Positions 6,471-56,106 of a DNA stretch of 64,000 nt are shown in pieces; the stretch's first letter is position 1; each line of letters begins with the position of its first letter. This DNA comes from Dictyostelium discoideum. Its lineage: Eukaryota. The stretch covers positions 3,072,001 through 3,136,000 of the forward strand of contig CM000150.2 of the NCBI GenBank assembly GCA_000004695.1, given 5' to 3'. Below the pieces are notes generated by a model. The model was not told the origin of the DNA, searched no databases, and saw nothing but the letters and a program-made list of their open reading frames with translations. The position numbers were made by a program, and so were the translations under genes.

Positions 6471-6894
6471 TTTTATTTAATAAATTTTTTATGTGTATTA
6501 TTTTAATTTTTTTTTTTTTATTATTATTAAAAAAAAAAAATTAAATTTCAAAAAATAAAAAAAAAACAAAAATTTTAAAATAAAATTTAAAAAAAATAAA
6601 ATAAATATCTCATGTTGCCATTTTTTACCAAAATAAAAAATAAATCAATTCTTTACAAAAATTAATTAAAAACAAAAAATAAATTTGATTTTCTTTTTAC
6701 TATTATTTTTTTTTTTTTTTTTATTACCAAAAAAAAGTATAATTCATTTCATTTTAATTTTAATTTTGTTTTTTTAATAATAAAGCTAAAAGATCAAAGA
6801 AAACTTGGAAGAGGAGATTAAACAATTTTAGTTTGTCTTTTATTTTTTTTTTTTTATTTTTTTTATTTTTTTTTTTCCTTTAGAAGATAATCTT

Positions 6895-9800
6895 TTAATT
6901 CTTATTTTGATATTTATAGTTATTTAAAGTTAAAGAAAATAAAACTACTGGTAGTGAAGATAATAATTCAGATAAACCGGCCAAAGCAGGTGGAATTGTA
7001 AACCATGGATATAAAATACCACTTGAAAGAGGAATACCTAAAAGATTATAGATGAATGCCCAAAATAAATTAAATTTAATAGTTTTGAAAATTGATTTTG
7101 ATAAATCAAAACAAACCAAAATATCATTTAAATCATTTTTTAGTAATATAACACTTGATGATTCAATTGCAATATCTGTACCATTTGAAATTGAAATACC
7201 AATATCTGATTGAACCAAAGCTAATGAATCATTTACACCATCACCAACCATTACAACAATTGATTTATTTTTACCATTATTACTATTATTATCACTGCCA
7301 CTACAACCAACACTGGCACCATTAAAACCATCACCACCATCAGTACCACAACAATTATCTTCAGTTGTATTATAACCTTGTAATTTTCTAACGATATTGA
7401 ATTTATCAATTGGTAATGCTGAACCAATAATATTACCCGAATTAATATTTAATTGTTCACCAATTGATTGAGTTGCTCTTTTATTATCACCACTAACTAA
7501 CCAAACATCAATACCATTATTTTTTAATTTTGAAATTACTTTTTTTGCTTCTGGTTTCAATTTATCAGATAATGAAACTAATCCAATAATTTTCTCATTC
7601 ATTGATACTAAAATTACTGTTTTCCCTTGATTCTCTAATTTATCAATATCATTTTGAATCACTGAATTAATTATAACTTCCTTTGATTGACTTTTTGATA
7701 GTTGTGATGATGACGAAGAGCAACAACCTTTCTTACAATCACTACCATTGCTAATAGAAGTTGGTGGTGGTGCTGGACAACAACCTTTCTTACAATCACT
7801 GCTATTGCTAATAGAAGTTGGTGGTGGTGGTGGTAATGATGGACAACAACCTTTCTTACAATCACTACCATTGCCAGTAGAAATTGGTGGTGCTGCTGCT
7901 GCTGGACAACAACCTTTCTTACATTCACTGCCATTGCTAATAGAAGTTGGTGGTGGTGGTGGTGGTGGTAATGATAGACAACAACCTTTCTTACAATCAT
8001 CAGATTTTGAATTAATTAATTGACTTGATTGTAATGGTGATTGACAAGAATCAATTTTATTATTATTATTTGATAATTGTTCAACAATAAAAGATTGATT
8101 ACCAACCATAATTTTATTATTATTAATAAAAGAAATAATACCTTTTCCAGGATGAACTTCACTATTTGTTGGTTCTTGTAGTGCTTTTTCTAAAGTGAAT
8201 TGTTGAATTGCATATTGTTTAATTGATTTACCAATTAAATGTTCACTTGATAATTCAGCGGATGCAGTATAGAAAAAGAATTGTTTTGGTGAAATTGATT
8301 GATCATATATTGAGAAATGATTTATATCGATTTCACCAGTTGTTAAAGTACCAGTTTTATCAAATATGACCTTGTTGACTTTACTTGCCAATTCAATTAC
8401 TTGACCACCACCTTTGAATAGAATACCAAATTTCTTTGCACCAATTGCACTACCAACCATAATTGATGTTGGCGTTGCTAATGAGATCGCACAAGGACAT
8501 GAAATTACCATTAATGACATACTAATTTTAATTGCAAAAGTGAATGCTGATTGATTATCAGTGGCAATGACAACATTATAGTGAATTAAACAAAACCAAA
8601 CTATAAATGTAATTATTGAGCATATTAATATGGTTGGTACGAAATAAGATGCAACTAAATCTGCATAGTTTTGAAAGTTTGGTTTAATTGATTGACTCTC
8701 TTCAACCAATTTAATAATATTTGATAATGCTGTATCATTTGAATGTTTTGTAACTTTAATAATTAAACAACCCTTTTGATTCATTGTTCCACCAAAAACG
8801 TAATCATCAATTCTCTTATAGACATGATTTGCTTCACCAGTTATAATTGATTCATCAATATATCCACCATTACCTCTAATTATAATACCATCAGTTGGAA
8901 TCTTTGTAAATGGTAATACTTTTAAAATATCACCTTTTTCAATTAACTCTTTTTCAATCATTATTTCTTGTTCACTACCTACATCTTTATTATTATTATT
9001 TGATAATAGAATTGCATTTGATGAATCTAATTGTTTCATTTTTTCGACTAATACATTTGATGCTTTTGATTTTGCTAAGTGTTCTAAATATCTACCAAGA
9101 ATAATTAATGTTAAAAGTATAACACAAGTTTCAAAGAAAATTGGACCATTATAATTCAATGAGGAGAAATGATTTAAAATTAAATTAATTAGAGAATAAA
9201 AGTAAGCAATCGTACTACTTGTCATAACTAATAAATCCATACTACATTTTCTTGCATAAATCAAAGTTTTCCAAGCTGAAATATACAATGGTTTACCACA
9301 ATAAAATTGAATTGGTGTTGCAAATGATAATAATAATAAAATTGACATTGTAATACCTTTACCAATTTCAAATTCCATAACTTCTTTAACTGATTTAATA
9401 TTTGGAAAAATATATGAAATTAAAATTGTTGGTATAAATAATAAAATACAAAACATTAATAATGATTTTAAGTTATTATTATTATTATCTTTTGAATTAT
9501 TATTCTTATTATTGGAATTATTATTATTATTTAATTTTGTATTTGGTTGAATTTTAAAATTATCACCAAATATAAGTTGGATTTCTTTTAATAGATTACG
9601 TGGTCCAATTTTATCAGTATCATAAACAATTGTAAGTTTATCATTAACCGAACCAGATTCTTCGATAGCATCTAAAACACCATCAATTGATAATTTAATA
9701 TTTTCAATTAATTGATCATTTAATATTGTTGTTAATGTTGAAGTTGGTGATAATGATATGATTTCAATTGTAATTTGATTTGAATTTGATGATTGACCAT

Positions 9801-11055
9801 GAACTTGTTTACCAACAAATCCAATATTTTCAATAACTTGTAAGATTTGTTGTGGTTGTATAATCATTGGTGAATAATTAATCTTACATTTACCAGTGAA
9901 TAAACTAGTTTGAATTTCATTTACACCTGATAATGATTTCATTTTTTGTTCTAATGTAGTTACACAATCTGCACATGTCATACCTGAAATCATTAAATGT
10001 AATTCAACTTTTTCTAATGATTTTGATAATGTTGATGATTGAGATGATTTTATACCTGTTGAATTTTTAAAATTATTTGTTGTTGTTATTGGTAATAATT
10101 CAATTGATACATTATTATTTGTGGATAATCCTTTATTATCCCTTTCTTCTTGTTGTTCAATATCCACCTTATCTTCATTCAATTCACTATAGCCAACTTT
10201 AAATCCAAATGTTCCACAAGTTTTAGAAAACATTGTTGCAAAGATACGTTTCTTTCTTTGTTGATCACTATTGTAATCATTGTTATTGTCATCTGATGAT
10301 GAGGATGAACGCATAAAACTAAAGTTTGGTACTCCTACACTATAAGTTAAACAACAAACTTGTTTACAACAATCAACTTTACAGCAATGGCCTGTTACAC
10401 AAATGTTGCAACAGTATGTTTTGGTTGATTCTACTTGTTGTTTTGGTTGTTCAGTTGGACAACATCCCTTTTTACAACCAATATCATTGGTTTCAGTTGT
10501 TTTTGATGATGATGAGCAACATCCTTTTTTGCAACTACCTTTATCATCCTTGGTGATCATTTTTTCATCATCGGATGGAGTTGGACAACAACCTTTCTTA
10601 CAATTGTCATTGGATGTAGTTGTTGTAGTTGTTGTAGTTGTTGTTGTTACCACTGGTGAAGAAATGGTATAATCTTTTTGAAAGTTTGGCTCCATAATGA
10701 TGGCACTGTTTAAACTATCCATATCCAATGAAACAATTGACCCAACATTAGAATTTGATTTGTAATTTTTAGGAACACCATCATCATCATCTTCTTCTTC
10801 ATCCTCGTCTTTGTCCCTATCTTCATCATTGTTTGTTAATAATGATTTCTTTTCACCACAACATCCCTTTTCGCATTGTTTTTTTGTTTGTAATGTTGGT
10901 GGTGGTGATGGTGGTGTGATGAAAATTATATCATCTTGGTTATCATCTAAAACTACTTTTGAGTTATTATAACTATTGGTGAAGATAACTTGATTAAATA
11001 ATGGGATACCTTCATCATAATCATAATTATCATCTTCTCCTTTAAAGTCTCCCAT
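6895..11055 (-). CDS. P1B-type heavy-metal (copper)-transporting P-type ATPase with one HMA domain and multiple CxxGCC Cys-rich repeats
   Basis: Continuous ORF. The probable true start is MGDFKGEDD (ATG at 11055..11053; the upstream part of the ORF is poly-Lys from poly-A). HMA motif GMTCADCV (about 9965-9990). TM6 CPC (ISCPCAISLATP, about 8490). DKTGTLT (about 8345-8370). SEHLIG (SEHP-like N-domain motif). GDGVNDSLAL (about 7235-7250). N-terminal CEKGCC/CKKGCC x4 and an internal tandem CKKGCC-Pro-rich insert x5. Confidence 0.9.
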   Translation of the reverse strand: MGDFKGEDDNYDYDEGIPLFNQVIFTNSYNNSKVVLDDNQDDIIFITPPSPPPTLQTKKQCEKGCCGEKKSLLTNNDEDRDKDEDEEEDDDDGVPKNYKSNSNVGSIVSLDMDSLNSAIIMEPNFQKDYTISSPVVTTTTTTTTTTTSNDNCKKGCCPTPSDDEKMITKDDKGSCKKGCCSSSSKTTETNDIGCKKGCCPTEQPKQQVESTKTYCCNICVTGHCCKVDCCKQVCCLTYSVGVPNFSFMRSSSSSDDNNNDYNSDQQRKKRIFATMFSKTCGTFGFKVGYSELNEDKVDIEQQEERDNKGLSTNNNVSIELLPITTTNNFKNSTGIKSSQSSTLSKSLEKVELHLMISGMTCADCVTTLEQKMKSLSGVNEIQTSLFTGKCKINYSPMIIQPQQILQVIENIGFVGKQVHGQSSNSNQITIEIISLSPTSTLTTILNDQLIENIKLSIDGVLDAIEESGSVNDKLTIVYDTDKIGPRNLLKEIQLIFGDNFKIQPNTKLNNNNNSNNKNNNSKDNNNNNLKSLLMFCILLFIPTILISYIFPNIKSVKEVMEFEIGKGITMSILLLLSFATPIQFYCGKPLYISAWKTLIYARKCSMDLLVMTSSTIAYFYSLINLILNHFSSLNYNGPIFFETCVILLTLIILGRYLEHLAKSKASNVLVEKMKQLDSSNAILLSNNNNKDVGSEQEIMIEKELIEKGDILKVLPFTKIPTDGIIIRGNGGYIDESIITGEANHVYKRIDDYVFGGTMNQKGCLIIKVTKHSNDTALSNIIKLVEESQSIKPNFQNYADLVASYFVPTILICSIITFIVWFCLIHYNVVIATDNQSAFTFAIKISMSLMVISCPCAISLATPTSIMVGSAIGAKKFGILFKGGGQVIELASKVNKVIFDKTGTLTTGEIDINHFSIYDQSISPKQFFFYTASAELSSEHLIGKSIKQYAIQQFTLEKALQEPTNSEVHPGKGIISFINNNKIMVGNQSFIVEQLSNNNNKIDSCQSPLQSSQLINSKSDDCKKGCCLSLPPPPPPPTSISNGSECKKGCCPAAAAPPISTGNGSDCKKGCCPSLPPPPPTSISNSSDCKKGCCPAPPPTSISNGSDCKKGCCSSSSSQLSKSQSKEVIINSVIQNDIDKLENQGKTVILVSMNEKIIGLVSLSDKLKPEAKKVISKLKNNGIDVWLVSGDNKRATQSIGEQLNINSGNIIGSALPIDKFNIVRKLQGYNTTEDNCCGTDGGDGFNGASVGCSGSDNNSNNGKNKSIVVMVGDGVNDSLALVQSDIGISISNGTDIAIESSSVILLKNDLNDILVCFDLSKSIFKTIKFNLFWAFIYNLLGIPLSSGILYPWFTIPPALAGLSELLSSLPVVLFSLTLNNYKYQNKN
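7724..7995. repeat. Tandem coding repeat, 5 units of 57-72 bp (each encodes D/E-CKKGCC-P/A-rich-TSISNGS) within the ATPase CDS
   Basis: Repeated block caacaacctttcttacaatcactgccattgctaatagaagttggtggtgg... seen 5 times on the + strand. It translates on the minus strand to the CKKGCC...PPPP...TSISNGSD units. Confidence 0.85.
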
Positions 11056-11467
11056 TTTTTTTTTTTTTTTTTTTCTATTTCTATAAAAAAAAAAAAGTAT
11101 ACTTTTTTCTTTTTCTTTTTCTTTCTTTTTTTTTTTTTTTTTTCTTTTTTTTTTTAACACAGAACACTGATTATTATGGAGTCGATTTCTTTAATAATAA
11201 AAAAAAAAATAATAATAAAAAAAAAAAAGAAATTTTTAATCAAAAAATCTGAATTTTCCAAAAAAAAAAAAAATAAAATTTTTATGCGTTTATATTTAGT
11301 TTTTATTTTTAGTTGTGCCACGTTGGGAATTGCTTCTTTTTGGTGGTTATTTAATTATTTAAAAAAAAAAAAAAAAAAAAAAAACAATATTACAAATATA
11401 AAAGAATAATTGAAGTTATATTATAAAATAAATAGATATTAAATATCAAAAAAAAAAAAACCTAAAT

Positions 11468-11521
<54 letters not shown>

Positions 11522-11993
11522 TAAAATTATTAAATTCTGATTAGAAATAGAATTTTAATTTTTTTTGTTTTATTTTATTTATTTGTGAAATGTCAAGAAA
11601 AAAAAATAGATAAAATAAAAAAAATAAAAAAAGATCAAACCAAATCTTGGATTTAAACCCTGATAGTATTCATGTCACTGTCAGTTGTATAAATCAGTAT
11701 GATGCATCCATTGTTTCATATCTTTTACAACAAATGTGGTTATGTTATGGCCGTACAATATAAAAACAATATCAAAAAGTTGGAAACCATCTGAGAATTC
11801 AGAGTTCTAAGAAAGTGAAATGGTGGTAATTTAAAAAAAAAGAATTTAATTCCAGAATTAATTTAGGATTTAAAATTAAATTAAAGATGTAAAAACTTAT
11901 AAAAAAGATATTTTTTAAAAAATCTTTATTTTTATTGTTTTTTTTTTTTTTAAAATTGTAAGATATTTTTTTTTTTTTTTTTTTTTATTAATA

Positions 11994-13319
11994 TTAAAGT
12001 TTTGGAGAAGTTTTTTTATTATTATAAGAAATTGAACCAATAATCATTTCATCATTAACACCCCATGAATTTAAATCATTATAATTGGCACTACCATATG
12101 AACCCAATGATTCTAATAATGATTTTGTATTTTTAGAAACACCTAAACCTTTATCAATTTTAAATAACATTAAAAAATCATTAGTTTTTAATTGGCAATA
12201 TCTTTTACATGATAAAAGATTTGAGTTATTATTAACTTTACTACACCATTCATAAAATGGCATTTCTTTACAACCAAACTGTTTTTTTAATGTTGATTCG
12301 AATAGAGAATCAAATCTTTGCATTTCACCATTAATATTATAAATTGAAGTTAATTTTGATAATTGTGAATTTGAGGAATTCCAACATTTTTCATTTAGAA
12401 TTACATTCATAATATTTTTAGAAGCCCAAGTAATTGGAGAAACCAATACATTAATATCAAGTGTTGGATAGAAACCAATTTCATGACTTGACAAAAACAA
12501 TGTTTGAAATAAATCATGAGCACCAATACTTGTGTATGGATTAACGAATAAGACTGGTGATCTAATAATCATGGCAGGTATATTAAACTTATTGGAGGCA
12601 TTCATCAATAGATACTCTGATACGATTTTACTTTGAATATAACCACATGATTCCTTTTCAAGATTATCAATTAATGGTAATTGAACTTGTTCATTAAATT
12701 CTTCACCTTGTTTTAGCGTATGATTATTGAATACTGAAAATGAAGAAATAAATACCATTTTAATTGGTGGTTGAACACTAATTGAGAGTTTAATCATTTC
12801 TCTAATACCATTGACATTTATGGTTTTCATTTTTTCATAATTTGATTCCAAATTAATATTGGCGGCAGAGCTTATAATTAAATTTACATCATTGGCCAAA
12901 TCTGCATAGTCGAATATTGAAATCCCAAATTTTGGTTTTCTTAAATCCCCACCGACAACTTCAATCTTTAACAATTGATTTGGTGTGAGTTGATCATACA
13001 ATTTATGTTGTTTTAAATTATTTAAAATATCATCAACTGGGTTACCCAACTTCTTTTTATTTCTTAATAAACAATATACAATTGTACAATTTGGTAATTT
13101 TAATAAATAATAAAGTAAGTATGCACCAAGGAATCCAGTTGAACCAGTTAAAAACACTCTTTTTTCATCACCATCATAACTTTTATTTGGATTTTTGGTT
13201 TGATCACTTTTTAATGGTTTAAATGATGAATCCAAATTCATTTCATTTTTCCAATATTCAATTCTATCATATTTAATTGTTGCTGATGATGTAATTGTAT
13301 TAATTATATTATTATCCAT
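11994..13319 (-). CDS. Stand-alone NAD(P)-binding thioester-reductase/fatty-acyl-reductase-like protein; paralogue of the C-terminal R domain of the PKS at 26695..36214
   Basis: 441-aa ORF. Rossmann motif VFLTGSTGFLGAYLL. YIQSKIVSEYLL matches the PKS C-terminal [12 protein letters not shown]. Overall the domain is collinear with the PKS R domain ([14 protein letters not shown] ... ). Ends -PKL. Confidence 0.7.
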   Translation of the reverse strand: MDNNIINTITSSATIKYDRIEYWKNEMNLDSSFKPLKSDQTKNPNKSYDGDEKRVFLTGSTGFLGAYLLYYLLKLPNCTIVYCLLRNKKKLGNPVDDILNNLKQHKLYDQLTPNQLLKIEVVGGDLRKPKFGISIFDYADLANDVNLIISSAANINLESNYEKMKTINVNGIREMIKLSISVQPPIKMVFISSFSVFNNHTLKQGEEFNEQVQLPLIDNLEKESCGYIQSKIVSEYLLMNASNKFNIPAMIIRSPVLFVNPYTSIGAHDLFQTLFLSSHEIGFYPTLDINVLVSPITWASKNIMNVILNEKCWNSSNSQLSKLTSIYNINGEMQRFDSLFESTLKKQFGCKEMPFYEWCSKVNNNSNLLSCKRYCQLKTNDFLMLFKIDKGLGVSKNTKSLLESLGSYGSANYNDLNSWGVNDEMIIGSISYNNKKTSPKL

Positions 13320-14278
13320 ATTTTTTGGTTTTTTTTTTTGTTTGTTTTGGTTTTTTTTTTTTTGGTTTTGTAAAAGTTTAAAATAAAAAGATTTTTTAAT
13401 TTTAAATAATTTTTTTAAAATAAAAAAAAAAAAAAAAACAAAAAAAATAAAAAAATAAAAAAATAAAAATAATAAAAAAAAGATATTTTTGAAAAAGTTT
13501 TGTTTGTTTTTTTTTGTTAAATGACACGTGGCTATTAAAAAAAAAAAAAAAAAAATATTAATTGGATCACAAGATTTTAATGTGATTGAACTTTTTAATT
13601 AATTATTAATTTAAATGAAAGTGCAATTTAACTACTCATTAAAAAAAAAAAAAAAATTTCAAAGATTAAATAATTAAAAAAGATTTAAAAAGATTAAAAA
13701 AATAAAAAAAATTAAAATAATTAAAAAAATTAAAAAAATAAAATAAACTGTTTTCTGTTTTGGGGTTTGGTTTTAAACAGATTTAAAAAAATTTTAAAAA
13801 TTAATTTTTATTCAACCCCCAAAACTTTACCAATAGGAGCCCAATTTTAATTATTTTTTTAATCATATTAATTACTGTAGCTACATTTTTTTATCAATTT
13901 TTTTTTTTTTTATTTTAATTTTATTGTTAAATTAAAACAAGTTATATAAAAATAAAAAATGGGGAACGAGATTCAAATTCAAATCGACAATTATTCATCT
14001 ATAACCTTTAACATTTTAGTTTTTTTTTTTTTTTTTTTTTTTAATTAAATAATTTTTTCTTTATCTTTTGACCAAGCATCAAATTTAACGTTAAATTAAT
14101 AAAAAAAAAAAAAATAAAAATAATACTTTTAAATTTATTAATTGTTGTTATTTTATTTTATATCGTTTATTATTAATGTGAATGAATTAAATAGAGAAAA
14201 TTAAAATAAATATATTGATCAATTTGTTTCCTTCTATTTATTGTGTACTTCATAATATTAAAATAAAAAATCAATCAG

Positions 14279-14323
<45 letters not shown>

Positions 14324-14341
14324 TTCAATAAAAATAAAAAA

Positions 14342-14375
<34 letters not shown>

Positions 14376-14819
14376 AATCAAAAAAAAGAAATCGGTGAGA
14401 TAAATAAATTTCTAATTTAACTGAAATTTCAAAAAAAAAAATAAAAAAAATATAACAATTTGATTTGTTTTTTCATTTAATTTTATTATATTTTATTTTA
14501 TTTTATTTCATTTATTTTTTATTTTTTATTTTTATTTCTATTTTACCATATTTTATTTTTATTTCTATTTTACCATATTTTATTTTTACTTATAGATAAT
14601 CCAAGGTATTAAAAAAGTAATAAAAAAGAAAAATAAAAATAAAAAAAAAAAGTAAAACAAAAATAAAATAAAAAAACAATTATAACCTTTGGATTAAATT
14701 AAAAAAAAAAAAAATTTTATTTGAAAAAAAAAAATAAAAAAAAAAAAAATAAAAATTACATGATATCATGTAATTTTTCTATTGGAATTCCCTTTTATTC
14801 ATATAAAGATCTGAAAAAG

Positions 14820-14863
<44 letters not shown>

Positions 14864-15128
14864 TTTTAATTTTTTTTATTTTTATTTTTATTTTTATTTT
14901 TTTTTTTTTTTTTAATTCAATCCAACATAAATGTAATAATAGTTTCATTTTTAGTCAGGATACCACTGCATTTAAAAAATAATATTGAAATAAAAATAAA
15001 AATAAAAATAAAAAAAATAAAAGATCTATCCATGTTTGGCTATAATTATATATTTATATAATATAAAAATAAATAAAAAATAAAAATAAATAAATAATAA
15101 TAATAACTATAATAACAGTAATAATAAA

Positions 15129-17970
15129 ATGTATAATTTTTTTGATAGAATCAAAGCGCCTCTAGTAAGTATATTTTTTTTATATTATATAAATATCTTT
15201 TTTTTTTTTTTTTTTTATTTTTTTTTTTTTTCATCACCTATTTTTTTTTTTTTACTAATTATTTATTAATATTTTTAAAAATAAAAAAAAGTCGGAATAT
15301 AAAAGGTATGCAGCGAATCATAAGAAAGATGATGATTTTACAGATATTGAGGATAAAATAAATTGTGGACAATTTCCGAATGAATATGGTAGTAATGCAA
15401 TCGAGTTACCAAATTCACCTACATATAATAATAATAATAATAATAATAATGGTTCACCAAACGTTTTAAAACAATCTCAATATATAAGTTTTATAAATCC
15501 ATTATCATTACCATCATCATTGATACCACCACCACCAAATTATACATCACAACAAAATCTAAGTGATGTAATGAGTAATAATGGTGGTGGTAGTGGTGTT
15601 GGTGTTAGTAGTAGTAATAATAATTTAAATTTAAGAAATACGACAGTATCAATGACATCACCTAGAAATGTACCAATAGTTACATCACCTCGAAATATTA
15701 CAATCTCACCTACTGCAAATATAATTTCTGTACCTGCTGAAATTTCACAATGTAATGATGTACCGAATTCAATTGGTTCACCACCAATTGAAGTTGAGCA
15801 ATCACATTTAGTACCAAATAGCGAATTAAATAACAATAACAATAATAATAATAATAATAATGAAAATGTTGGTGAAGAAGATTTTCAATCATTAATGGAT
15901 CAATCGAATAAATTACAAATTCAAATGCAAATGTTAATGCAAAAAATGCAACAAATGCAACAATTGAAACAACAATTAAATTTAAAACATTCATCAGCCA
16001 CTAATATATATGTACCACCAAGACAAGTTAGAGTGTCTGGTCAAAAACCACCAATTAGACAAAGACAATTTCAAATGAGACCTCCACAACAATCTCAACA
16101 ACAATTTTTCGATTTACCAATTCAAGAGCATGAACATGATATACCCCATTCAAAAAGACAAGAATTTGAAGATTCATTAAGAAACACTACAACTGCAACA
16201 ACAAATTTTAATGAAATTGAAATGCAAAATTTAAACCAAACTTCAAGTAGATTTGGTAATAGTAATACATTTTATAATCCAAATTTTGTGAACCATAGTA
16301 GTGGCAGTTTAGATGAGTCAACCATAAATGTTGATTCACAATATCAACAACATGAAAAAGATAAAGATAATTCAAGTCAATTATCAAAAACTACAATGAC
16401 CACATTACCAATAGTTTCTCCACCACAAGTAAAAGGTGATGTGATTTTGAATATTGATGATGAAAATGGTAAAACCATTATTAGTACAACAACAGTAACA
16501 CCAACAACAAGTCCTCATGGTTTAGTTGGTGATGATTCTCCAACGACAACAACAATAAAAGGTGGAGAAAATGGTGGTTCACCATCAGTTGATGGTGGTG
16601 GTGGTGCTATAATTGATGGTAGATCAACAATTAAGATGGTAATACCAAAGATAAAATCAAAATTTAATAAAGAGAAAATGCAAAGATTTAAAAAAGGTGT
16701 ATTTCAAATATTGGCACCACCAACTCAAAATTTACCAGTTCATATAGTTGATCAAGAGTTGACAGAAAGTAAGGTGGTACCATTTTTAATGGAACTTGGA
16801 CGTGCTTTGACAATGTCTGGAGTGCCATCGAATAGATTAGAATTTGAGTTAACTTTAATTAGTACTACTTTTGGTATAGATGGTCATTTCTTTACAACAC
16901 CAACTGGTATTTTCTTTTCATTTGGTTCACCTCATTCAATTCTTTCACCATATACTCATTTCCTTAGAATCAATTCCACCGATTACAATATGGAACGTAT
17001 GGTTAGATTGGAGAGATTGGCCGATAAGGTTATCTATGGTGAAGTTAGTTGTGTTGAAGCATTGGAGAAGTTAAGAAAGATTCTAGCAAAGAAGCCATTG
17101 TACAATATCTATCTCACAACTTTTAGTTATATAATGTCATCATTCACCATTGCCTTCTTTTTCGATGTTGGCTGGGTCGAGGTTGGAGCTTGTTCAATCA
17201 TTGGATTCTATGTTGGCCTTTTATGTCTACTCTCGAGTAAAGTGTCTTTGGTTGGCAGAGTTTTGGAGGCCTTGTCATCTTGTGGTGGAGCAATCATTGC
17301 ATCGTTGTTCAATTGCTACATTTCGCCTATCCCCATATTTACAGTGACCCTGGGCGGCATCATATCGTTGTTGCCTGGTTTAGGCTTGACATTGGCCGTA
17401 GCGGAGATTTCAACTAGAAATCTGGTTAGTGGCACCTCAAGATTGGTTGGTGTTTTCTCTTGTTTATTGCAATTAACTTTTGGTATTGCGTTGGGTACGA
17501 AATTCTCAGAGGTAGTCATGCCAGTAAGAGACGAAGTTTTACCTGTAACTTTCCCTGATTGGGTAATGTTTATTGTAATTCCGTTCGCTGCCATTACATT
17601 TGGTGTTCAATTAAAAGTTCATTGGAGAGAATTTTGGGTTATCATCATCGCTAGTTACATTGGTGTAACCGTTGGTAATTGGGGTAGTAAATATTTTGGT
17701 GATGTTGGTGCTTTCTTTGGTTCAGCTGCAATTTGTGCTCTAGGTAACCTTTACTCAAGATTAACAAATATTTCTGCGGTCGTTCCAATTATGGCGGGTA
17801 TTATTTTACTGGTTCCTGGTAGTATGGGTGTTAAAGGTATCGTTTCAATCAGTGATGGTGATATTTCCGGAGGAATTGATTTCATTGGTGGTATGTTTAT
17901 GACTGCTGCAAGTTTAACAATGGGTTTATTGGTTGCAAATTTAATTATTGCTCCTCCAAAATCGTTCTAA
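15129..17970 (+). CDS. Polytopic membrane protein, putative ThrE/DUF1212-DUF3815-family (threonine/serine-exporter-like), with a long low-complexity N-terminal region (2 exons: 15129..15164, 15292..17970)
   Basis: Mini first exon ATG TAT AAT TTT TTT GAT AGA ATC AAA GCG CCT CTA followed by GTAAGT at 15165. The acceptor is ..aaaaaaaAG at 15290-15291 and is in frame with the long ORF. Before the first TM, the C-terminal half has a ThrE-like block (VVPFLMELGRALTMSGVPSNRLEFELTLISTTFGIDGHFFTTPTGIFFSFG). About 10 hydrophobic helices follow. Family assignment is from memory of motif patterns only. Confidence 0.45.
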
Positions 17971-26694: not shown

Positions 26695-29600
26695 ATGATT
26701 GAATCAACTTCGAATAAATCTAGAGATGTTGCTGTTATAGGTATGGATAGTCCTGATTTAGTATTTTTTTTTTTTTTTTAGTTTTTTTTATTTTTTTTAT
26801 TCAATTCTGAAATTTCATTTTTTCATTTTTCTATTTTTTTATTTTTTTATTTTTTATTTTAGGTATTGGTTTACGTTTACCAGGTGGATCGAATACACCA
26901 TTAGAATTATGGAATAATTTAATTAAAGGTATAGATGGTATTGTTGAAACTAAGGAGCGTTGGAGTGATACTTTCTCAGAGATGGGAGAGGTTTCAAGTA
27001 AATATGCAGGTTTAATAGATTTCGATCAATGGATGTCGTTTGACCCTTTACATTTCGCTATTAACCCATCAGATGCCAAAGAAATTGACCCTCAACAAAA
27101 AATTTTATTAAAAACTACTTGGGAAGCTTTCGAAGATGCACAAATTGATCCATTATCACTAAGAGGTAGTGATACTTCTGTATATGTCGGTGCATCTTCA
27201 ATGGATTACGCAAGTATCAATACTGATCCAAATAAACAACCAATTAATTGTTTTAATGTTAATCTAAGTGGTGTATCAAATCGTATTTCATATTGTTATG
27301 ATTTAAGGTAATTAAACATGGGGTGTTAATGATGAAATGATTATTGGTTCAATTTCTAATAATAATAAAAAAACATCTTCAAAACTTTAATATATATAAC
27401 TTTAATAAAAAAAAAAAAATTCTAATATATTATTTTATTTTAAGAGGTACTTCATTAACTATTGATACAGCATGTTCAAGCTCATTGAATGCTGTTCATT
27501 TAGGTTATGAGTCAATTGTTAATGGAAAGTCAGATTACTCAATAGTTGGTGGTGTTAATTTTATAATTAGTAAGTAAATATATATTTATTTAAAATTATT
27601 TAATATTTAATATTTAATATTCAAAAATTTGTAAGATTATTAATTAAATAATTTTATTATTTTAGATCCACAACAATCAAGAGCATTCAAATATGCAATG
27701 GTTACAAGTAAAACTGGTAAATGCAAAGCATTTGATGAATCAGCTGATGGTTTTGTTCGTTCAGAGGGGGCAGTAGTTTTAATTTTAAAGAGTTTATCAA
27801 AATCTATTGAAGATGGTAATCAAATTTATTCAATAATTAAGGGTAGTAGTTCAAATGTTGATGGTACTTTAAATAAAACAAATTATTTTGCACCTTCAAA
27901 AGTTTCACAATCAAATAATATGCAAAAGGCATTCGATTCTACAAATGGTGAATTAACACCAAATGATATTAGTTTCTTTGAACTTCATGGTACAGGTATA
28001 GTATATTTTTTTATAATAATTATTATTATTTCTTTAGTTGTTTTTGTGGTGGTGGTGGTACACATATATAAATTGATTTCTAATATTTATTTATTTATTG
28101 TTTTATTTTATAAAAAAAACAAAAAAGGTACACAAATTGGTGATCCAATTGAAGTTGAAGCAGTATCAACCTTATTTAAAGATATTAAAACTAAAGAATC
28201 ACCATTATTAATTGGTTCAATTAAATCAAATATTGGTCATTTAGAACCAGCAAGTGGAGTTGCATCATTAGCAAAAGTTTGTTTAATGTTAAAAAATAGA
28301 GAATTTGTAAAGAATATTCATTTTGAAACACCAAATCCAAATATTAAATTTGATGAATGGAAAGTTAAAGTTTGTACACAGAATACACCATTTCCAACTA
28401 TTCGTGGAAAACCAATTTCAATTGCAATTAATAGTTTTGGTATTACAGGTTCAAATGCTTGTCTATTATTATCAGAATATTTAAAAACCAATATAACTAC
28501 AACAAATGATCAATTAGAACCATCGACAACAAGTTATTTAATACCATTAAGTTCAAGTTCAAAAAAATCATTAGAGCTTTACAAGAATGAATTAACAAAT
28601 AATATTGAAACATTTTCAAAATCAATTGAATTTAAAGATTTTATAAGTTATCATATAAATTCAAAGGCAATAAAATTAGCATCAAGATCAGTTTTAATGG
28701 TAAAGGATTGGGATGAATTAAAATCAAGTTTAAATTTAAATGAACCATTAATTTATTCAAGTAAAGGTAATAAATCAGGAAATATAATGAAAGATAATAA
28801 TAAGAATCCAATATTAGTTTTTGTATTTTGTGGTATTGGTGGACAATGGAATCAAATGGGTAAACAGCTTTATGAAACCAGTAAAGTGTTTAAACAATCA
28901 ATAGATGAAATCGATCAAATCTTTAATAGACTATTTGGTTATTCAATTTTAAAGAAATTAAGATCAATTAGTGATGATGATTCAAAAGGAATTAATGAAT
29001 TTATAACCTCTCAACCATCAATATTCATGCTTCAAGTATCATTGTTTGAATTTTATAAGAGTTGGGGAATTAATCCATCGATTAATGTTGGTCATAGTTT
29101 TGGTGAAATTTCATCTGCTTGTTGTTCAGGAATGCTTGATTTGGAAACTGCATGTTTCATAGTTTATAAAAGATCAATTATTCAAACTAAAACCATTGGT
29201 AGTGGTGGAATGTTAGTCATTGGTTTAAGTGAAGATGAATATAAAAAACAATATCAATCTCAATATCCATTGATAGAAATTAGTTGTTTTAATTCACCAT
29301 CATCAATTGTAATTAGTGGTAGTGAACTGGATTTAACCACAATTACAAGTTCACTTAAAGAAAAGAATATTTTCACCTATTTATTAGGCTCACCTGCAGC
29401 ACTTCATTCATCAAAACAAAAGGTTATCAAAGATGATATTTTAACTCAACTTAAAGATATTAAATTCAAACAACCAACAATTAAAACCTTTTCAACTGTC
29501 ACAACAAATTTATTTGATAATTCAACAACACCATTCGATAGTAATTATATTTTTTCAAATATTAGAAAACCAGTATCATTTGAAAAAACAATTAAAAACA

Positions 29601-32600
29601 TCTTTAATCATATTGAAACTAATGATCTTGGAAGTAATGTAATCTTTTTAGAATTATCACCACTTCCAACATTAACTAATTATATCAAAGAAATGATACC
29701 ACAAAATTCAAATTACTTTTACATTGATGATGAATCAATTACAATTTTGACATCATTAAATAAAAAAAAATCAATTGATGAATTACAAGAAATTAAATCA
29801 ACAATTTCACAAATTTATTGTTCTGGTTATAATGTTAACTTTAAATCACAATTAACAACAACAACAACAACAACTTTTGGTAATTTAATAATTGATAGTA
29901 ATAAAATTGTTAAAGGTTTTACGTCTTATTATTTACCACGTTATCAATGGGATGAATCAAATTATTTTAAAGTTGGTAGAATTTCAAAACAAATTTCACA
30001 AGGTCCAACAGCGACTCAATTAGGTTATCGTAATGATGTATCACCATTTATGTCATACACATCATACATCGATATTAAAGAGGAACCATTTAAATTTCTA
30101 AAGTGTCATCAATCACGTGGTAGAAATTTATTCCCAGGAAATGCATACTTGGAGAATGTTTTAAAAGTATTTCCAGATCAAGATTTAACATTTCATTTAA
30201 TTGAATATAGATCACCATTGATATTAAAAGAAGGTATTAAACATATTATCTCTACAAATATTTATCCCAGTGCAAAGAATGAATATAGAGTTACCTTTCA
30301 TTATAAAGATAGTTTCGATAAATGGATTTTAGGTTGTTCAGCTAGATTCTCTGTATTAAAACATAATAGTGATTTAGAGAATCAAAAGATTGATGTAGAA
30401 TCATTAAAGGCTAAATGTAATTGGACAACAATTAAAAGGAAGGAATTTTATGAAGTATTAAAAACAAACACATCATTGGCACTCACTGGTCAATTTCAAT
30501 GTATTGAAGAAGCATACTATGGTTATAATTGCTGTTTAGCTAAAATATCAATGAATGAAACTTTAACAAAACTATCACAATACGATAATGAATTATTTTT
30601 AAATGCTTGTACAATCGATGGTGGTTTCCAACTATTAGGTTTATTTAGAGATAATCCAGATACTTTTGTTATGGATAGAGTTGAACTACTTAGATTCTAT
30701 GCTTCAAATATTCCAAAATCTTCAAAGTTTAGAGAAAATTATCCATTCATTTATACCTATACCGAATTTATTAGTCAAATTGGTAATTCAGTATATGCAA
30801 ATATTAATACATTCTTACCTGATGGTACATTATTATTTAATACTCCTGTTGTTTGTTACTCTTCAATTTCAACTGATATAAAAAATCAATTGTCAATTGA
30901 AAATCCAAATCATCAATTATACTCTACAGTTCTTCAATCACTAGAATCACCATTGTCAGTCACTACCCAAAATGCAATCATTGATGAGAAATTATTCTTA
31001 TCATTTTTACCAACCCCAGTTGCAAATATTAGAAAAGCATTTACAACCTGTATCTTTTCAAATATAAAGAAAATTTATCAATCAATTACACCAGCTAAAA
31101 TTAATACTTCAACTGTTGATTCCCTAATCGATAGTTATTTTAAAATTTGTGAAACTGATAATATTGAAAAAAGAAAATTAGGTGAAACATTATTTAATGC
31201 TTTAAAATTAAATTATTCAATTATTGAATATAGTTCTCAAGCTAAATTAATTAAATTATTATCAACAAATCAAATTGAAATAATGAATAAAATTACAACC
31301 CATTTATTAAATGAAACAAAACCAACAACAAACACTACTGAAACCACACCTGTTAGTAGTAGTCAAAAATTACCTGAACAAATTCAATTAATTGAAAATA
31401 TTATTACAAAATCAGTTTTACCATTAGTTAATGAAAAGATTGTATTTAGAATTTTAGAAATTTCATCAGGTATCGGTCAATTATCAAAGATTATAGTTAC
31501 AAGATTGAATGAGTTATTACAACAAAATCCTTTAGCAGAAATTGATATTGAATTAACATTTACCGATAGAGAAGATATTACATTAATTAAAGAGAAATTA
31601 ACAACATTACTTTATTCAACATCATCGACAGCCGATATAAATAGTAAAGATCTTTCATCACGTAAAACTAGTTTAATTTTTACTCAATTGGATTTAAATG
31701 ATAAAGATTTAATTTCATCAAAAACCATTTATCCATCCTATTATGATATTATAGTTTTAAATGGTTTGGATGGTATTAAAGATTTAAATCAATCAATTGA
31801 AACTATTTATCAAATTCTTAATCCAAATGGTTATTTCATAATGATTGATACTTTATTTAAAGCTAATAAAAGTGATTTAAAAAACTATGAATTATATCAA
31901 CAATGGTTATCTTTCAATTATTTTGATTCAACTAAAGATTTAGATTCTTGGAAAAAGTTATTAACTCAAGATTTTAAATTAATTAATTTCACTGCTACTT
32001 CAAGTCAACCATGGGTAATTTTATGTCAAAAACCTAGATTTTTCGAAACAGTTTCAACTGAGAATCCAATCTCTACAACTCTTAGTTGCTATGATCAAGT
32101 TATTATTTTCGGTACAATTGATAATATCAATGAATCAAAAGCACTATCAAAATTAATGGATGTTAATGATAGAGGTACCGATATTTATTGTATAAAGACT
32201 TTGGATGAATTTGAAACTCATGTCAAAGAGACACCATTAACTGATGAATCGGTTATAGTTTATGTGAATACAATCAATCAAGTATTCATTTCATTCATTT
32301 CCTATTCATTAGAATATATCAAAATCAATCAACATTTATTAAGAACCAATTGTAACGCCAAACATGTATTGTTAACTAGAAGTGCATTCATTGAAACTAC
32401 CAATACATTGGTAAGTGCAACAGTTGGAGCTTTTAGATACTTTTGTGAATTCTCTCAATTGGATTTATATTTAATGGATTTTGATGATTCAATCTATTTA
32501 AAATCTATGCAATTCATAAATGTAACCCATGAAATGACAAATCCAAATAAACACTACCAAAGGGAATTCATTTTTAGAGGTGATAAAGTTTACTATGAAA

Positions 32601-35600
32601 GAGTTACTCAAGAGACAAACTTAAAATTAAAATTAAAATCAACATCATACATATCCGAGCCAACTCAACTATATGCAAAATTAGGTCAAAACTTACAATA
32701 TCAATTGAAACCATTTGAAAATAAAATTCCTGAAGGATTCATTGAAGTTAAAGTATTGGCAAGTGGTATCAATTTCAAAGATAATTTAGTTTATCGCCGT
32801 TTGGTACCAAATGAAGCTGTGAACCATACTGGTAATTCAAATGATCCAGAATTTGGTTATGAATGTTCTGGTATTGTATCAAGAGTAGGCGATGGTGTTA
32901 CAAAATTCAAAGTTGGTGATGAAGTGGTTGGTTTAGGTTTCAATTGTACAGGTTCATTTGTAACTTTAGAACAATTTAGATTTGTATTAAAACCAAAGAA
33001 TCTTACTCATGTTGAAGCAGCTTCAATTCCAGTGGTTTATTTAACATCATATTATAGTTTATTCGTTGCTGGTTATCTTAGTATTGAAAAGAAAGAATCT
33101 GTACTAATTCATGGTGGAACAGGTGGTATTGGTTTAGCATGTATTAATCTTTTAAAAGCAAAAGGTTTCAAAGGTTATTTATTCGTTACTGTTGGTTCAA
33201 AAGAAAAAGAAAATTTCCTTCGTGTTACCTATGGTAACTTTATCACTGGTATCTATTCAAGTCAAAATACAGATTACCTTTTAGAAATCAAGAAAAAGAT
33301 ACAACAACTCACTGGAAATAATTTAATTTTTAAACAATTTGGTGTTGCTAAAATGGGTATTGATTTAATTATAAATACATTATCAAATGAATTTATGGAT
33401 GCAAATTTCAATTCATTATGTCAAGGTGGTAGAATTATTGATCTTTCTGTGACTCACATGAATAGTCAAGATACTACTGATTTTAGAAAATTCCGTTATT
33501 GTATCAGTTATTCAAGTGTTGAATTACTTTTAAATGGTTTCGAAAGAAATAAATTAATACTTCAAGAGGTTATGGATATGTTTGTAAATGAAAATTTAGC
33601 ATTACTACCAATTAAAGAATATTCAGTTAAAGATATTAAAGAAGCTATTGAATTCATCGCTGAAAGAAAACATATTGGTAAAATTGTTGTTAATCATGAA
33701 AACTATGATTTAATTTCACAAACTCTTGTTAGCAATGATAATGAATTCTATAAAGACTTTTTAATTCCAAAAGCAAACTATAGAATAAGTGCAGATTGTA
33801 ATTTGGGTAAAACCGTTTTATTAACTGGTCAACTTGGTCTTAGTTTATCAATTATCAAATGGATTATTGCTTTTAATAATTTAGAACAACCAGTTGAAAA
33901 TATATTAGTACTATCATTATCACCTATCAAATATGAATTGGAACATATGATTTGTTATTGTAAACATGTTAATAATCAAATTAAAATAATATTTAAACAA
34001 GTGGATATCTCTGATATGTGTGCATTGGATGATGCAATTGGTGAAATTTATAAAGAAAATGAAAATTTACCATTGGTATCTTCAATTTTCCATAATGCAT
34101 TTGCACCATCGGAATGTGACGCATTGGATATTGATGAAGATCATTTGAGGATATCTCATTCAGCCAAAACTATGGGTATGATAAATTTGAATTCCCTTTC
34201 AACTGGTATTTGGTCAGAGTCTATAAAGAACTTTGTATTGTCATCATCTATAACAAGTATTCTTGGAAGTCAACGTCAATGTGGTTATATTAGTGCAAAT
34301 TGTATCATTGATGCAGTCTCAAGATTAAGAGCATCAGAAGGTTTACCATGTACTTCAATTAACTGGGGTGTACTTGGTACTGGTTTCGTTTCAAGAAATG
34401 AAAGTGTTTCAAAGTTATTTGAATATCAAGGTTTCATTCCAATCTCTATGGATATGTTAATTGGTACATTGGATTTATTCTTACAAAATTCTGGTAAATT
34501 AAATAACAAAATAGTTGCCTCATTTAATTATAATAATGTTAGTGCAGCATTTAGAAATCATCATCTATCCTATAAATTAAATTACTTTTTAAATCCAGTC
34601 TATTCAAAAGGTTCAACTTTTGATGATAATGAATTATCAATTAGAGATGATATTTTAGAGAAATTCTCTGAATATCTATCAACTGAAAAATCAAAATTAA
34701 GTTTAGATATCAAATTAATAGATTATGGTAGTAGTTCAATTATGCTTGTTGAATTAAAGAATTATTTAGATAAAACTTATACACCAAACATTTTATCGAT
34801 TGCACAACTTCAAAATGTAACAATCAATCAATTAATTCAAGCAGTAATTCAAGCAGTTTCAAAATTAAAAAAACCAACAACAAATCAACAATCTCAGCAA
34901 CCAATTATTTCAAACATTAAATGGGAGGATGAGATTGCATTAGATCCAACCATTAAACCAACTCAACAAATAATTGATACCTATAAAAATGAAATGACTC
35001 AACTTTACAAAAATAATAATAATAAAACAAGTTTGGGAGGTTTACAAGTACTATTAACTGGTCCATGTACATTTTCAGGTACTCATATACTTTCAAATCT
35101 TTTATTATCTTCAAAAACAAAAGTGATTCATTGTTTATTACCAATGGAAACTCCAGAGCAAGTAATGTGTACAATCATTGATAATTTCAAAGCTCAAGGT
35201 TTATATGATCAATTGAATTTAGCAAATGTATTATCAAAGATTAAACCAATTGCTGCAGATTTTACAAGACCAATATTTGGATTGGATACTGATGATTATA
35301 TTGAACTTTCAAAAAAGATTGATATAGTCATTAATGCAGCATCAAATACAACCAAACATTATTGTGCTCATATTTCCTATGAAGATACAAATAAAGAGTA
35401 TTTACATGGTGTCTCACATTTACTTAGATTTGCATCAAGTGAAAAGCTAAAGAGGGTCGTTCAAATCTCAACATTGGGACGTTATTCTGATTTACAAAGA
35501 AATTCTTTAGACGAATACTATTTCCCAGAGGTCGATTTCTCATTCATTTCCGATCAAAATCAGTTAGTATCAGGTTATATTCAATCAAAGATTGTGGCAG

Positions 35601-36214
35601 AGTATCATCTTAAACAAGCTTCAAATCGTGGTATTCCATGTTTAATAGTTCGTACTCCATTTACCTTCCCTGGAAATAATGGTATTGGTAGAGAAGCTGA
35701 TTTCACTCAACTACTTCTCCAAAGTTGTTATACATTAAATTGTTATCCAACTGAATCACATATTCAACTCTACACTGCACCTGTAACTTGGTATGCAAAG
35801 AATATTACATTAATGGCTGTTGGTAGTGATATTTCACAAGATGGTTGTTGGGATACAATCAACACATCTCCAATTGAAAACCTTTTATGTTTTAATCTTT
35901 TCGGAGGTGGCTTTGATTTTGGTGATTTATTGGTTGATATTTCAAAAGATTTATCTTGGAAAGAAGTCCCATTCGAAACTTTGGTTAAAAAAGCTGCTGT
36001 AAATGAAACTGAGTGTTGTAAAAGATTGGCTTCATTCGTTTTAAAGAAAAAAGGTGATTTCTTAAAAAATTTAGGTGTTATCCCTGGTAATTTCACCGTC
36101 AATGAAAATCTCAAAAATTATTTAACCTTAAATAACTCATTTGATGGTTGGTTAGTTACAAAACAATTAGTCTATAATCATTTATCTTATGTTTTTAAAA
36201 AGAAAGTTTTTTAA
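26695..36214 (+). CDS. Fully reducing type I polyketide synthase, KS-AT-DH-cMT-ER-KR-ACP-R (5 exons: 26695..26740, 26863..27307, 27445..27569, 27666..27995, 28128..36214)
   Basis: Exon junctions restore canonical KS sequence: DVAVI|G|IGLRLPGG (donor GTATGG 26741, acceptor 26861-62); ...CYDLR|[18 protein letters not shown] (donor GTAATT 27308, acceptor 27443-44); ...GGVNFII|NPQQSRAF (donor GTAAGT 27570, acceptor 27664-65); ...ELHGTG|[11 protein letters not shown] (donor GTATAG 27996, acceptor 28126-27). AT GHSFGE about 29100. [13 protein letters not shown] about 30110. c[11 protein letters not shown] about 31470. [12 protein letters not shown] about 33110. [11 protein letters not shown] about 33820. 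[11 protein letters not shown] about 34730. R domain [12 protein letters not shown] about 35060 ... [10 protein letters not shown]. Confidence 0.9.

Positions 36215-56034: not shown

Positions 56035-56106
<72 letters not shown>

Follow-up and report, generated by a model that had tools for sequence, protein, structure and literature searches.

The locus at positions 26695-36214 on the forward strand of the window (the whole 64,000-nt stretch of DNA that was analysed) is pks2 of Dictyostelium discoideum. The spliced product of 3010 amino acids is 100% identical, residue for residue, to the annotated Pks2 (DDB_G0270572) of D. discoideum AX4, which has the database entries UniProt Q55DM7, XP_646104.1 and P0121 ('Probable polyketide synthase 2'). 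The encoded protein is very probably a type I polyketide or fatty-acid-like synthase that works iteratively and is fully reducing; it is specified by five exons and organised as KS-AT-DH-MT(inactive)-ER-KR-ACP-R. pks2 is an ordinary gene that is already known and has been present in databases from the genome publication onward, and the main value of the analysis is that raw Dictyostelium sequence suffices for recovering correct splice sites and domain order.

The window has a GC content of about 22% and its top protein matches are from Dictyostelium. An earlier reading of the DNA, made without database searches (the sequence-only reading), had guessed that the gene is one of the dictyostelid pks genes, and comparison with the catalogued genes proved this guess exact. 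Full-length orthologues of Pks2 are present in D. cf. discoideum (97% identity), D. citrinum (91%) and D. purpureum (73%). The D. purpureum protein 153779 is paired with pks2 by InParanoid (PMC3188802, Table S6), and Pks2 is one of four PKSs having a D. purpureum orthologue (PMC3188802). The same paper reports, second-hand, a 'cheater' phenotype upon mutation of pks2, a claim that originates from Santorelli et al. 2008. This link, together with the conservation across group-4 dictyostelids, makes Pks2 a reasonable candidate for product discovery. A full-text literature search for DDB_G0270572 found no paper. The name 'pks2' in PMC3171403 denotes the mycobacterial PKS2, and the text matches in PMC12625978, where pks5, 7, 24 and 25 were studied by untargeted metabolomics, belong to pks24, pks25 and pks28.

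The five exons are separated by four short, AT-rich introns with GT..AG borders, all of which lie within the KS domain (Table 1), and the GC content of the introns is 6-16% compared to 27-33% for the exons. The spliced coding sequence of 9033 nt has one stop, which is terminal, and contains HGTGTQIGDP and the other KS motifs quoted in the sequence-only reading in intact form, bearing out its claim that these motifs are restored by splicing. The Pfam KS model gives one unbroken alignment across the first three junctions (aa 10-251, model positions 2-251), and the fourth junction is spanned by Ketoacyl-synt_C (aa 260-382). The GT..AG joins and this unbroken alignment confirm the earlier proposal that the KS domain of a type I PKS is interrupted by four short introns. 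For the third intron, 27569|GTAAGT is the sole fitting donor; exon ends at 27570, 27571 or 27572, or an acceptor at 27447, either break the frame or, in the case of 27572, preserve it but lack a GT donor. Intron 4 is in frame and free of stops, and for this reason the supplied ORF (27698..36214) runs through it. The read-through would insert 44 residues, and that this insert is spurious had been recognised correctly. The boundaries given at the time, 28005..28127, were exact at the right edge, but the left edge was placed 9 nt too far to the right and is at 27996; position 28005 offers no GT, and an intron starting there would disrupt both the reading frame and the HGTGTQ motif.

All four intron positions are kept in D. 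citrinum. D. purpureum has intron 3 at the identical position and an intron 4 codons downstream of the position of intron 4, and has no intron at the positions of introns 1 and 2. No hidden in-frame introns were found in exon 5 when species-specific insertions and low-GC windows were examined. Support for the splice sites comes from sequence logic, database annotation and conservation. It has also to be considered that the gene is decaying or mis-annotated, with only the ORF 27698-36214 being real and the upstream 'exons' being chance matches. The mechanical ORF list indeed shows the long ORF alone. However, this ORF by itself would be without the KS active-site Cys, and the pieces join at canonical sites into an unbroken KS match. 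Furthermore, the orthologues in three species cover the full length, and the KS domain has a dN/dS of 0.08 relative to D. citrinum, compared to 0.12 over the entire protein. A decayed or mis-annotated locus is therefore extremely unlikely.

Table 1. Coordinates of the pks2 exons, introns and domains and of a nearby reductase gene, in positions of the window
Feature	Position	Strand	Details
Stand-alone thioester reductase DDB_G0269592	11994-13319	-	TGSTGFLG, YCLLR, YIQSK; 13 kb upstream of pks2
Exon 1	26695..26740	+	ATG; aa 1-15 and first base of codon 16
Intron 1	26741..26862	+	122 nt, GTATGG..TTTTAG, 13% GC; splits VAVIG|IGLRLPGG
Exon 2	26863..27307	+	N-terminal part of KS
Intron 2	27308..27444	+	137 nt, GTAATT..TTTAAG, 15% GC; splits after YDLR
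Exon 3	27445..27569	+	carries KS active-site Cys in DTACSSS
Intron 3	27570..27665	+	96 nt, GTAAGT..TTTTAG, 6% GC; splits VNFII|NPQQS
Exon 4	27666..27995	+	last part of KS N-terminal domain, first part of Ketoacyl-synt_C, to HGTG
Intron 4	27996..28127	+	132 nt, GTATAG..AAAAAG, 16% GC; splits HGTG|TQIGDP
Exon 5	28128..36214	+	8087 nt including TAA; rest of KS, AT, DH, MT-like, ER, KR, ACP, R
KS	26722..28327 (aa 10-382, split by four introns)	+	ketoacyl-synt E 4e-69, Ketoacyl-synt_C E 9e-29
AT	28817..29722 (aa 546-847)	+	Acyl_transf_1 E 3e-47
DH region	29999..30916 (aa ~940-1245)	+	HxxxGxxxxP aa 976-985; DGGFQ (DxxxQ) aa 1146-1150
MT-like domain, probably inactive	31382..31990 (aa 1401-1603)	+	between DH and ER
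ER	32741..33691 (aa 1854-2170)	+	ADH_N, ADH_zinc_N_2; GGxGG-type nucleotide motif
KR	33812..34375 (aa 2211-2398)	+	Pfam KR E 3e-24; Lys, Ser, Tyr and Asn positions conserved
ACP	34622..34891 (aa 2481-2570)	+	ACP_SdgA_C E 8e-27
R domain	35042..36211 (aa 2621-3010)	+	NAD_binding_4 E 2e-30

A Pfam search combined with motifs gives the domain order KS-AT-DH-(MT-like)-ER-KR-ACP-R, as the sequence-only reading had stated. Matches to KS, AT, ER, KR, ACP and NAD_binding_4 are each above their own cut-off; the predicted reductase was found, but the predicted cMT has no Pfam match above threshold. Motifs were checked in an alignment of 73 dictyostelid PKSs, and the catalytic motifs are intact in KS, AT, DH, ER, KR and ACP of Pks2. 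The Cys-His-His residues of KS are present in DTACSSS, HGTGT and NIGH, and the AT active site reads GHSFGE (aa 637-642), keeping the serine of GHSxGE. The DH region scores 20 bits with Pfam PKS_DH_N, under the cut-off of 27, and both of its motifs are conserved across paralogues. ER has a dN/dS of 0.05. The glycine motif of KR, TGQLGLSL, is a family-typical variant. The attachment motif of ACP is YGSSSI compared to YGADS in paralogues, with Asp replaced by Ser before the attachment Ser.

The segment between DH and ER had been read as a cMT, with a possibly methylated product, but a working cMT is not supported. The Pks2 'cMT' is probably a degenerate relic, and C-methylation is unlikely because the segment gives no Pfam match above threshold, is devoid of the His-Glu dyad, has lost parts of the lid and shows faster evolution than the other domains. 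A Pfam scan of the full-length protein detected no methyltransferase family at E <= 0.01. The isolated segment was rescanned with Pfam at E <= 10 and reached 17.9 bits for Methyltransf_12, 16.5 for Methyltransf_31 and 15.6 for Methyltransf_23, against cut-offs of 30, 27 and 27, respectively. It was then scanned with an HMM derived from paralogue MT domains, and its score of 117 bits identifies it as a true homologue. The 37 sequences in this profile all have the His and Glu, since they were selected for both. In PKS C-methyltransferases the His-Glu dyad assists methyl transfer (PMC9821293). The catalytic His is absent from Pks2 (NGLDGIK), its place being taken by Asp in the HMMER alignment to CurJ and by Gly in MAFFT, and the Glu is replaced by Asp (IMIDTL), at a 26-residue spacing in the CurJ alignment. 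In SAM motif I (LEISSGIG), the first Gly of E/D-x-G-x-G-x-G is changed to Ser. In addition, a conserved lid segment (QSLFENGxLDxFY) and an RKDRC segment are deleted in Pks2.

An active C-methyltransferase, and with it a methyl-branched reduced polyketide as the product of Pks2, is very unlikely when these losses are set against the evidence in its favor. The latter consists of the homology to the paralogue MT domains, the resemblance of the predicted model to the C-MT structures of the citrinin PKS and PsoF, and a D. purpureum orthologue with a better motif I (IEIGCGIG) that scores 25 bits on Methyltransf_23. The structural resemblance concerns a model of moderate quality (pLDDT 72), whose best PDB matches, 5MPT and 6KJG, are weak (TM 0.40-0.48). 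Some purifying selection persists in the MT-like domain (dN/dS 0.23-0.28), but this is the highest value of all domains and comparable to that of the linkers. Moreover, every Pfam MT score is below threshold, the dyad His is missing, Asp stands in place of Glu and the first Gly of motif I is lost. The paralogue-profile sequences have both dyad residues, having been chosen for them. Predictions of the Pks2 product should not assume C-methylation.

The C-terminal reductase that had been proposed is present: in addition to the NAD_binding_4 match (106 bits, cut-off 20), the domain matches the R domain of MxaA at E 9e-15 and its fold best fits terminal thioester reductases. The predicted model (pLDDT 82) has a two-subdomain reductase fold following the carrier domain, and each of its top 29 Foldseek matches in the PDB is a terminal R domain from a PKS, an NRPS or a carboxylic acid reductase. 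The catalytic Thr, Tyr and Lys are kept in ISTLG (35465-35479) and YIQSK (35576-35590), and ISTLG and GYIQSK align with VSTVS and GYAQSK of MxaA. Variant residues are found in TGPCTFSG (35057-35080) and HCLLP (35129-35143), where the middle Gly of TGxxGxxG is replaced by Thr (T2630) and the conserved Arg at the end of β-strand 2 by Pro (P2654). Both changes, with the first motif in the form TGPC[TS]FxG, are fixed in all seven Pks2 orthologues, including that of D. purpureum, and both canonical features are found in 38 of the 40 other dictyostelid R domains. Due to the departure from TGxxGxxG and the Arg to Pro change, release that depends on NADPH is not assured; that the Pks2 R domain frees its chain reductively, as an aldehyde or alcohol, is plausible but equally uncertain. 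With a cofactor site that is atypical yet conserved, reductive off-loading is to be treated as a hypothesis.

Alternatively, the R domain of Pks2 may not be a conventional NADPH-dependent reductase, and may use another cofactor or have a non-reductive or structural role, with release perhaps occurring in trans, for example by DDB_G0269592. The two fixed substitutions point in this direction, as do the lower NAD_binding_4 score (106 bits compared to 177 for a paralogue) and the location nearby of this stand-alone R protein with canonical motifs. Nevertheless, such an unconventional domain is unlikely given the intact Thr/Tyr/Lys catalytic residues, the complete two-subdomain fold kept by the model and the strong constraint under purifying selection (dN/dS 0.12 and 0.06). 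Known non-redox R* domains, the Dieckmann cyclases, have lost the Tyr. For release in trans, nothing functional ties DDB_G0269592 to Pks2, and a tblastn search for a stand-alone R around the orthologues of D. citrinum and D. purpureum, up to a distance of 6 kb, found only the R domain of the PKS itself. The fixed, lineage-specific loss of two NADPH-binding determinants with retention of Tyr and Lys makes a variant chain release possible, in which the domain might use a different cofactor, work without hydride transfer or cooperate with DDB_G0269592, and Pks2 might then make a developmental signal; this proposal is rather improbable.

The surroundings of pks2 include a CfaA/B/C-family gene, Erf4-like ORFs and a BEACH protein; no tailoring enzymes of a biosynthetic cluster were found among the neighbours. 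The two Erf4-like ORFs that flank pks2 have no detectable relation to each other. A tRNA scan found none.

As a conventional reducing synthase, Pks2 would load malonyl units via AT and extend the chain iteratively on KS and ACP, with each β-keto group presumably being reduced through KR, DH and ER. The expected outcome is an acyl chain that is largely saturated and unmethylated. The R domain would then release this chain, which is bound to ACP as a thioester, to yield an aldehyde or alcohol, hydride transfer being the most likely mechanism, although the atypical cofactor site (middle Gly to Thr, Arg to Pro) renders both the cofactor and the reductive nature of this release only putative. Iterative programming, including chain length and skipped reductions, is not readable from sequence.

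The five-exon model of the annotated D. discoideum Pks2 matches the reconstruction presented here, with no difference seen. The general layout, in which a thioester reductase closes a reducing PKS, is common to about half of the 40 PKSs of D. discoideum. According to PMC12828403, 21 of these 40 have an off-loading enzyme after the ACP, of which two are chalcone synthases and the rest, approximately 19, are 'most likely' thioester reductases. R-terminated paralogues, such as Pks45 and DDB_G0271530, have the KS-AT-DH-MT-ER-KR-ACP-R layout in common with Pks2 and are 38-48% identical to it over the full length. Compared to the dictyostelid paralogues, the Pks2 orthologues alone pair an intact Tyr and Lys in the R domain with loss of the middle Gly and the Arg. 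Outside the dictyostelids, the best matches to the R domain, in sequence as well as in structure, are that of the myxalamid PKS-NRPS MxaA (PDB 4U7W/4W4T) and a PKS thioreductase of S. coelicolor (8V1X; sequence match at E 2e-13), with Foldseek E 5e-21 and TM 0.71-0.77. Their catalytic motifs, vST and GYxQSKxVAE, also occur in Pks2, to which they are about 20% identical. However, LLTGATGFLG and CLVR of MxaA correspond to the TGPCTFSG-type variant and CLLP of Pks2.

The best PDB match to the MT-like domain is the CurJ C-MT (5THY, E 0.0015) by sequence, and the citrinin PKS CMeT (5MPT) and PsoF (6KJG) by fold; a class I MT core with a helical lid is common to all of these and Pks2. The His-Glu dyad of C-MTs, kept by many paralogues, is Asp or Gly and Asp in Pks2. 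A possible parallel is the inactive MT-like domain of the animal fatty acid synthase, an insert with an MT fold in the KR structural subdomain that persists although its catalytic residues are gone. For such cases in FAS-like synthases, the comparison figure of PMC12828403 has the label 'MT0, inactive MT'.

The window has a GC content of about 22%, rising to about 27-33% in coding stretches. For the interval of pks2, the mechanical ORF list gives a 2838-codon ORF (27698..36214, + strand) preceded by two shorter ORFs on the same strand. Reading of the DNA together with junction testing resolves the gene into five exons, separated by introns of 122, 137, 96 and 132 nt that are all GT..AG and have a GC content of 6-16%. 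The spliced CDS of 9033 nt carries its sole stop at the end, and exon 5 shows no sign of a concealed in-frame intron. The KS Pfam model forms one unbroken alignment over junctions 1-3, while Ketoacyl-synt_C covers junction 4. The five-exon PKS gene with four KS introns proposed in the sequence-only reading is thereby recovered, including its three quoted KS motifs. The only error in that gene structure concerns where intron 4 begins, put at 28005 instead of 27996 (a 9-nt correction); its right edge at 28127 is correct. Intron 4 is stop-free and its length is a multiple of three, so the long ORF reads through it and gains 44 extra hydrophobic residues between HGTG and TQIGDP, as had been suspected. 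The splice junctions are predicted from sequence logic, conservation and public annotation.

Features of pks2, of its product Pks2 and of the surrounding genes (nt, window positions; aa, Pks2 residues)
Feature	Position	Strand	Basis or remark
DDHD-domain protein	1313-2455 nt	+	
Thiolase	5286-6470 nt	-	E 4e-64
Heavy-metal P-type ATPase	6895-11160 nt	-	HMA + E1-E2 ATPase
DDB_G0269592 (Q55DN4)	11994-13319 nt	-	NAD_binding_4, E 7e-44
ThrE-family protein	15520-17970 nt	+	
Erf4-like ORF	20703-21350 nt	+	sub-threshold match
CfaA/B/C-family gene	24976-26088 nt	-	CfaA_B_C, E 3e-29
pks2 exon 1	26695-26740 nt	+	junction testing
pks2 exon 2	26863-27307 nt	+	junction testing
pks2 exon 3	27445-27569 nt	+	junction testing
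pks2 exon 4	27666-27995 nt	+	junction testing
pks2 exon 5	28128-36214 nt	+	junction testing
KS	10-382 aa, extension to 475		Pfam
AT	546-847 aa		Pfam
DH	963-1040 aa		Pfam, weak N-terminal match under cut-off
MT-like region	1401-1603 aa		
ER	1854-2170 aa		Pfam
KR	2211-2398 aa		Pfam
ACP	2481-2570 aa		Pfam
ACP attachment motif YGSSSI	2515-2520 aa (34724-34741 nt)		
R domain	2621-3010 aa		
NAD_binding_4	2625-2873 aa		Pfam, E 2e-30
Erf4-like ORF	37107-37631 nt	+	sub-threshold match
BEACH/PH_BEACH/WD40 ORF	47127-55607 nt	-	2826 aa; Beach domain E 5e-126

In the protein search all best matches of the product are from Dictyostelium. The database cluster matched best, with 97% identity to the sequence representing it, includes a 3010-aa protein of D. 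discoideum AX4, DDB_G0270572 ('Probable polyketide synthase 2'; XP_646104.1, Q55DM7). Comparison with catalogued dictyostelid pks genes, which the sequence-only reading had proposed, shows the spliced translation and this protein to be the same at every residue; public annotation thus already covers the gene, the four introns and the product. Modelling has been applied to all 40 D. discoideum PKSs, and in 21 of them an off-loading enzyme follows the ACP, two being chalcone synthases and the others 'most likely monomeric thioester reductases'; Pks2 was placed with Pks22, 23, 44 and 45 for its AT/ACP contact (PMC12828403). Interest in pks2 is low, since the gene was known before and its architecture is widespread among D. 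discoideum PKSs. D. discoideum and D. purpureum are reported to share just four orthologous PKS pairs, among them 'Dd3/Dp12', in which, according to Table S6, DDB_G0270572 (3010 aa) is Dd3 and protein 153779 (2973 aa) is Dp12 (PMC3188802). This pair corresponds to pks2 and the D. purpureum orthologue compared here. A passage of the same paper, citing Santorelli et al. 2008, states that 'mutation of Dd3 causes a cheater phenotype' (PMC3188802). The literature searched on Pks2 assigns it no product.

Two orthologous loci were compared, that of D. citrinum at 91% identity and that of D. purpureum at 73%, with exons solved against the annotated proteins. In D. citrinum all four introns recur at identical codon positions but differ in length (196, 104, 89 and 111 nt), whereas the D. 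purpureum gene (6001-15321 of its locus, L001) has six introns compared to four in pks2. Intron 3 (VNFII|NPQQS) is the sole exact positional match in D. purpureum; its intron near HGTGTQ is displaced four codons downstream relative to intron 4, the coding sequence runs on without introns 1 and 2, and extra introns occur at aa 105, 422, 643 and 2073. These gene structures point to intron turnover between the D. discoideum and D. purpureum orthologues.

An alignment that covers 73 dictyostelid PKSs shows these residues and motifs retained in Pks2: Cys/His/His of KS, GHSxGE of AT, HxxxGxxxxP and DxxxQ of DH, the nucleotide motif of ER, Lys/Ser/Tyr/Asn of KR and the serine of ACP. At the ACP attachment motif most other aligned PKSs have YGADS, but D. 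discoideum and D. citrinum share YGSSSI (GSSS versus GADS) and D. purpureum has YGASS, the Asp preceding the phosphopantetheinyl Ser having been lost in the Pks2 lineage.

The domain order KS-AT-DH-cMT-ER-KR-ACP-R of the sequence-only reading is largely upheld by Pfam, but its cMT was too generous. No methyltransferase family matches full-length Pks2 at E <= 0.01 in Pfam. With the isolated segment, three such families match at the same place with 15.6-17.9 bits, well below the cut-offs of 27-30, compared to 48.6 bits for the paralogue DDB_G0271530. The region scores 117 bits with a profile of 37 paralogue MT domains, and it matches the CurJ C-MT from the PDB (E 0.0015). Its AlphaFold model is of moderate confidence (pLDDT 72), and the best PDB fold matches are the citrinin-PKS CMeT and the PsoF C-MT (TM 0.40-0.48). 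Despite its low Pfam scores, the region is thus a true homologue. Methyl transfer by PKS C-MTs is assisted by a His-Glu dyad (PMC9821293). Aligned with CurJ, Pks2 has Asp both at the His of this dyad and at the Glu, 26 residues on, while MAFFT places a Gly opposite the His, which is missing in either alignment. Motif I reads LEISSGIG, and QSLFENGxLDxFY (lid) and RKDRC, both conserved in paralogues bearing the His and Glu, are deleted. Compared with D. citrinum, dN/dS is 0.23-0.28 in the MT-like region, 0.12 in whole Pks2 and 0.17-0.31 in linkers. From these sequence features it is concluded that the Pks2 MT is probably structural and inactive, which speaks against the suggested methylation; the loss of MT chemistry is common to the whole Pks2/Pks45-like clade.

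No tailoring genes flank pks2. The divergent upstream neighbour belongs to the counting-factor-associated CfaA/B/C family and recurs in the same arrangement in D. citrinum (locus L002, 4167-5282), but not in D. purpureum, where the neighbours of the orthologue differ. The two flanking ORFs with sub-threshold Erf4 / Golgin subfamily A member 7 matches have no detectable similarity to each other (BLASTP E 0.024). The downstream BEACH ORF, possibly extending to 55819-56376, does not encode a PKS; besides it and pks2, the window has no giant ORF. Among the DDHD, thiolase, ATPase and ThrE genes upstream, none is an obvious polyketide tailoring enzyme. DDB_G0269592, 13 kb upstream, is a free-standing 441-aa thioester reductase with fully canonical motifs (TGSTGFLG, YCLLR, YIQSK), and it also carries the conserved ACP-R linker motif. 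It shares 29% identity with the Pks2 R domain and 41-44% with R domains from other clades of PKSs. Nothing beyond proximity connects it to Pks2, and it has no free-standing counterpart within 6 kb of the D. citrinum and D. purpureum orthologues. Among the top hits from D. firmibasis, no R-terminated protein is closer than 39% identity to Pks2, the best being a 2519-aa paralogue without R domain; the orthologue may therefore be missing or unannotated there.

The C-terminal reductase stands on the NAD_binding_4 match, a sequence match to the myxalamid terminal reductase MxaA (E 9e-15) and the R-type fold of the model. Further solved-structure matches are a Streptomyces PKS thioreductase and an archaeal NRPS reductase. 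When the AlphaFold model of aa 2600-3010 (pLDDT 82, pTM 0.86) is compared with the PDB, the first 29 matches are all terminal reductases, from PKSs, NRPSs or carboxylic acid reductases. With dN/dS of 0.12 in the Rossmann part and 0.06 in the C-terminal subdomain, the R domain is as constrained as the remainder of the protein. The catalytic ST...YxxxK residues are intact, in line with the proposed reductive release, but the claim was slightly overconfident given two substitutions: TGxxGxxG reads TGPCTFSG, with the middle Gly replaced by Thr, and the Arg ending beta-strand 2 is replaced by Pro. By analogy with Rossmann folds in general, the two positions would be in contact with the pyrophosphate and 2'-phosphate of NADPH. 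Reductive release is the best single guess, offered as a hypothesis. Only the atypical, conserved cofactor site is mildly novel. Both substitutions occur in all seven Pks2 orthologues examined, including that of D. purpureum, whereas 38 of the other 40 dictyostelid R domains are canonical at both sites and the remaining two also lack a catalytic residue; at the end of beta-strand 2, where Pks2 has Pro, the paralogues (YCLxR) and MxaA (CLVR) have Arg.
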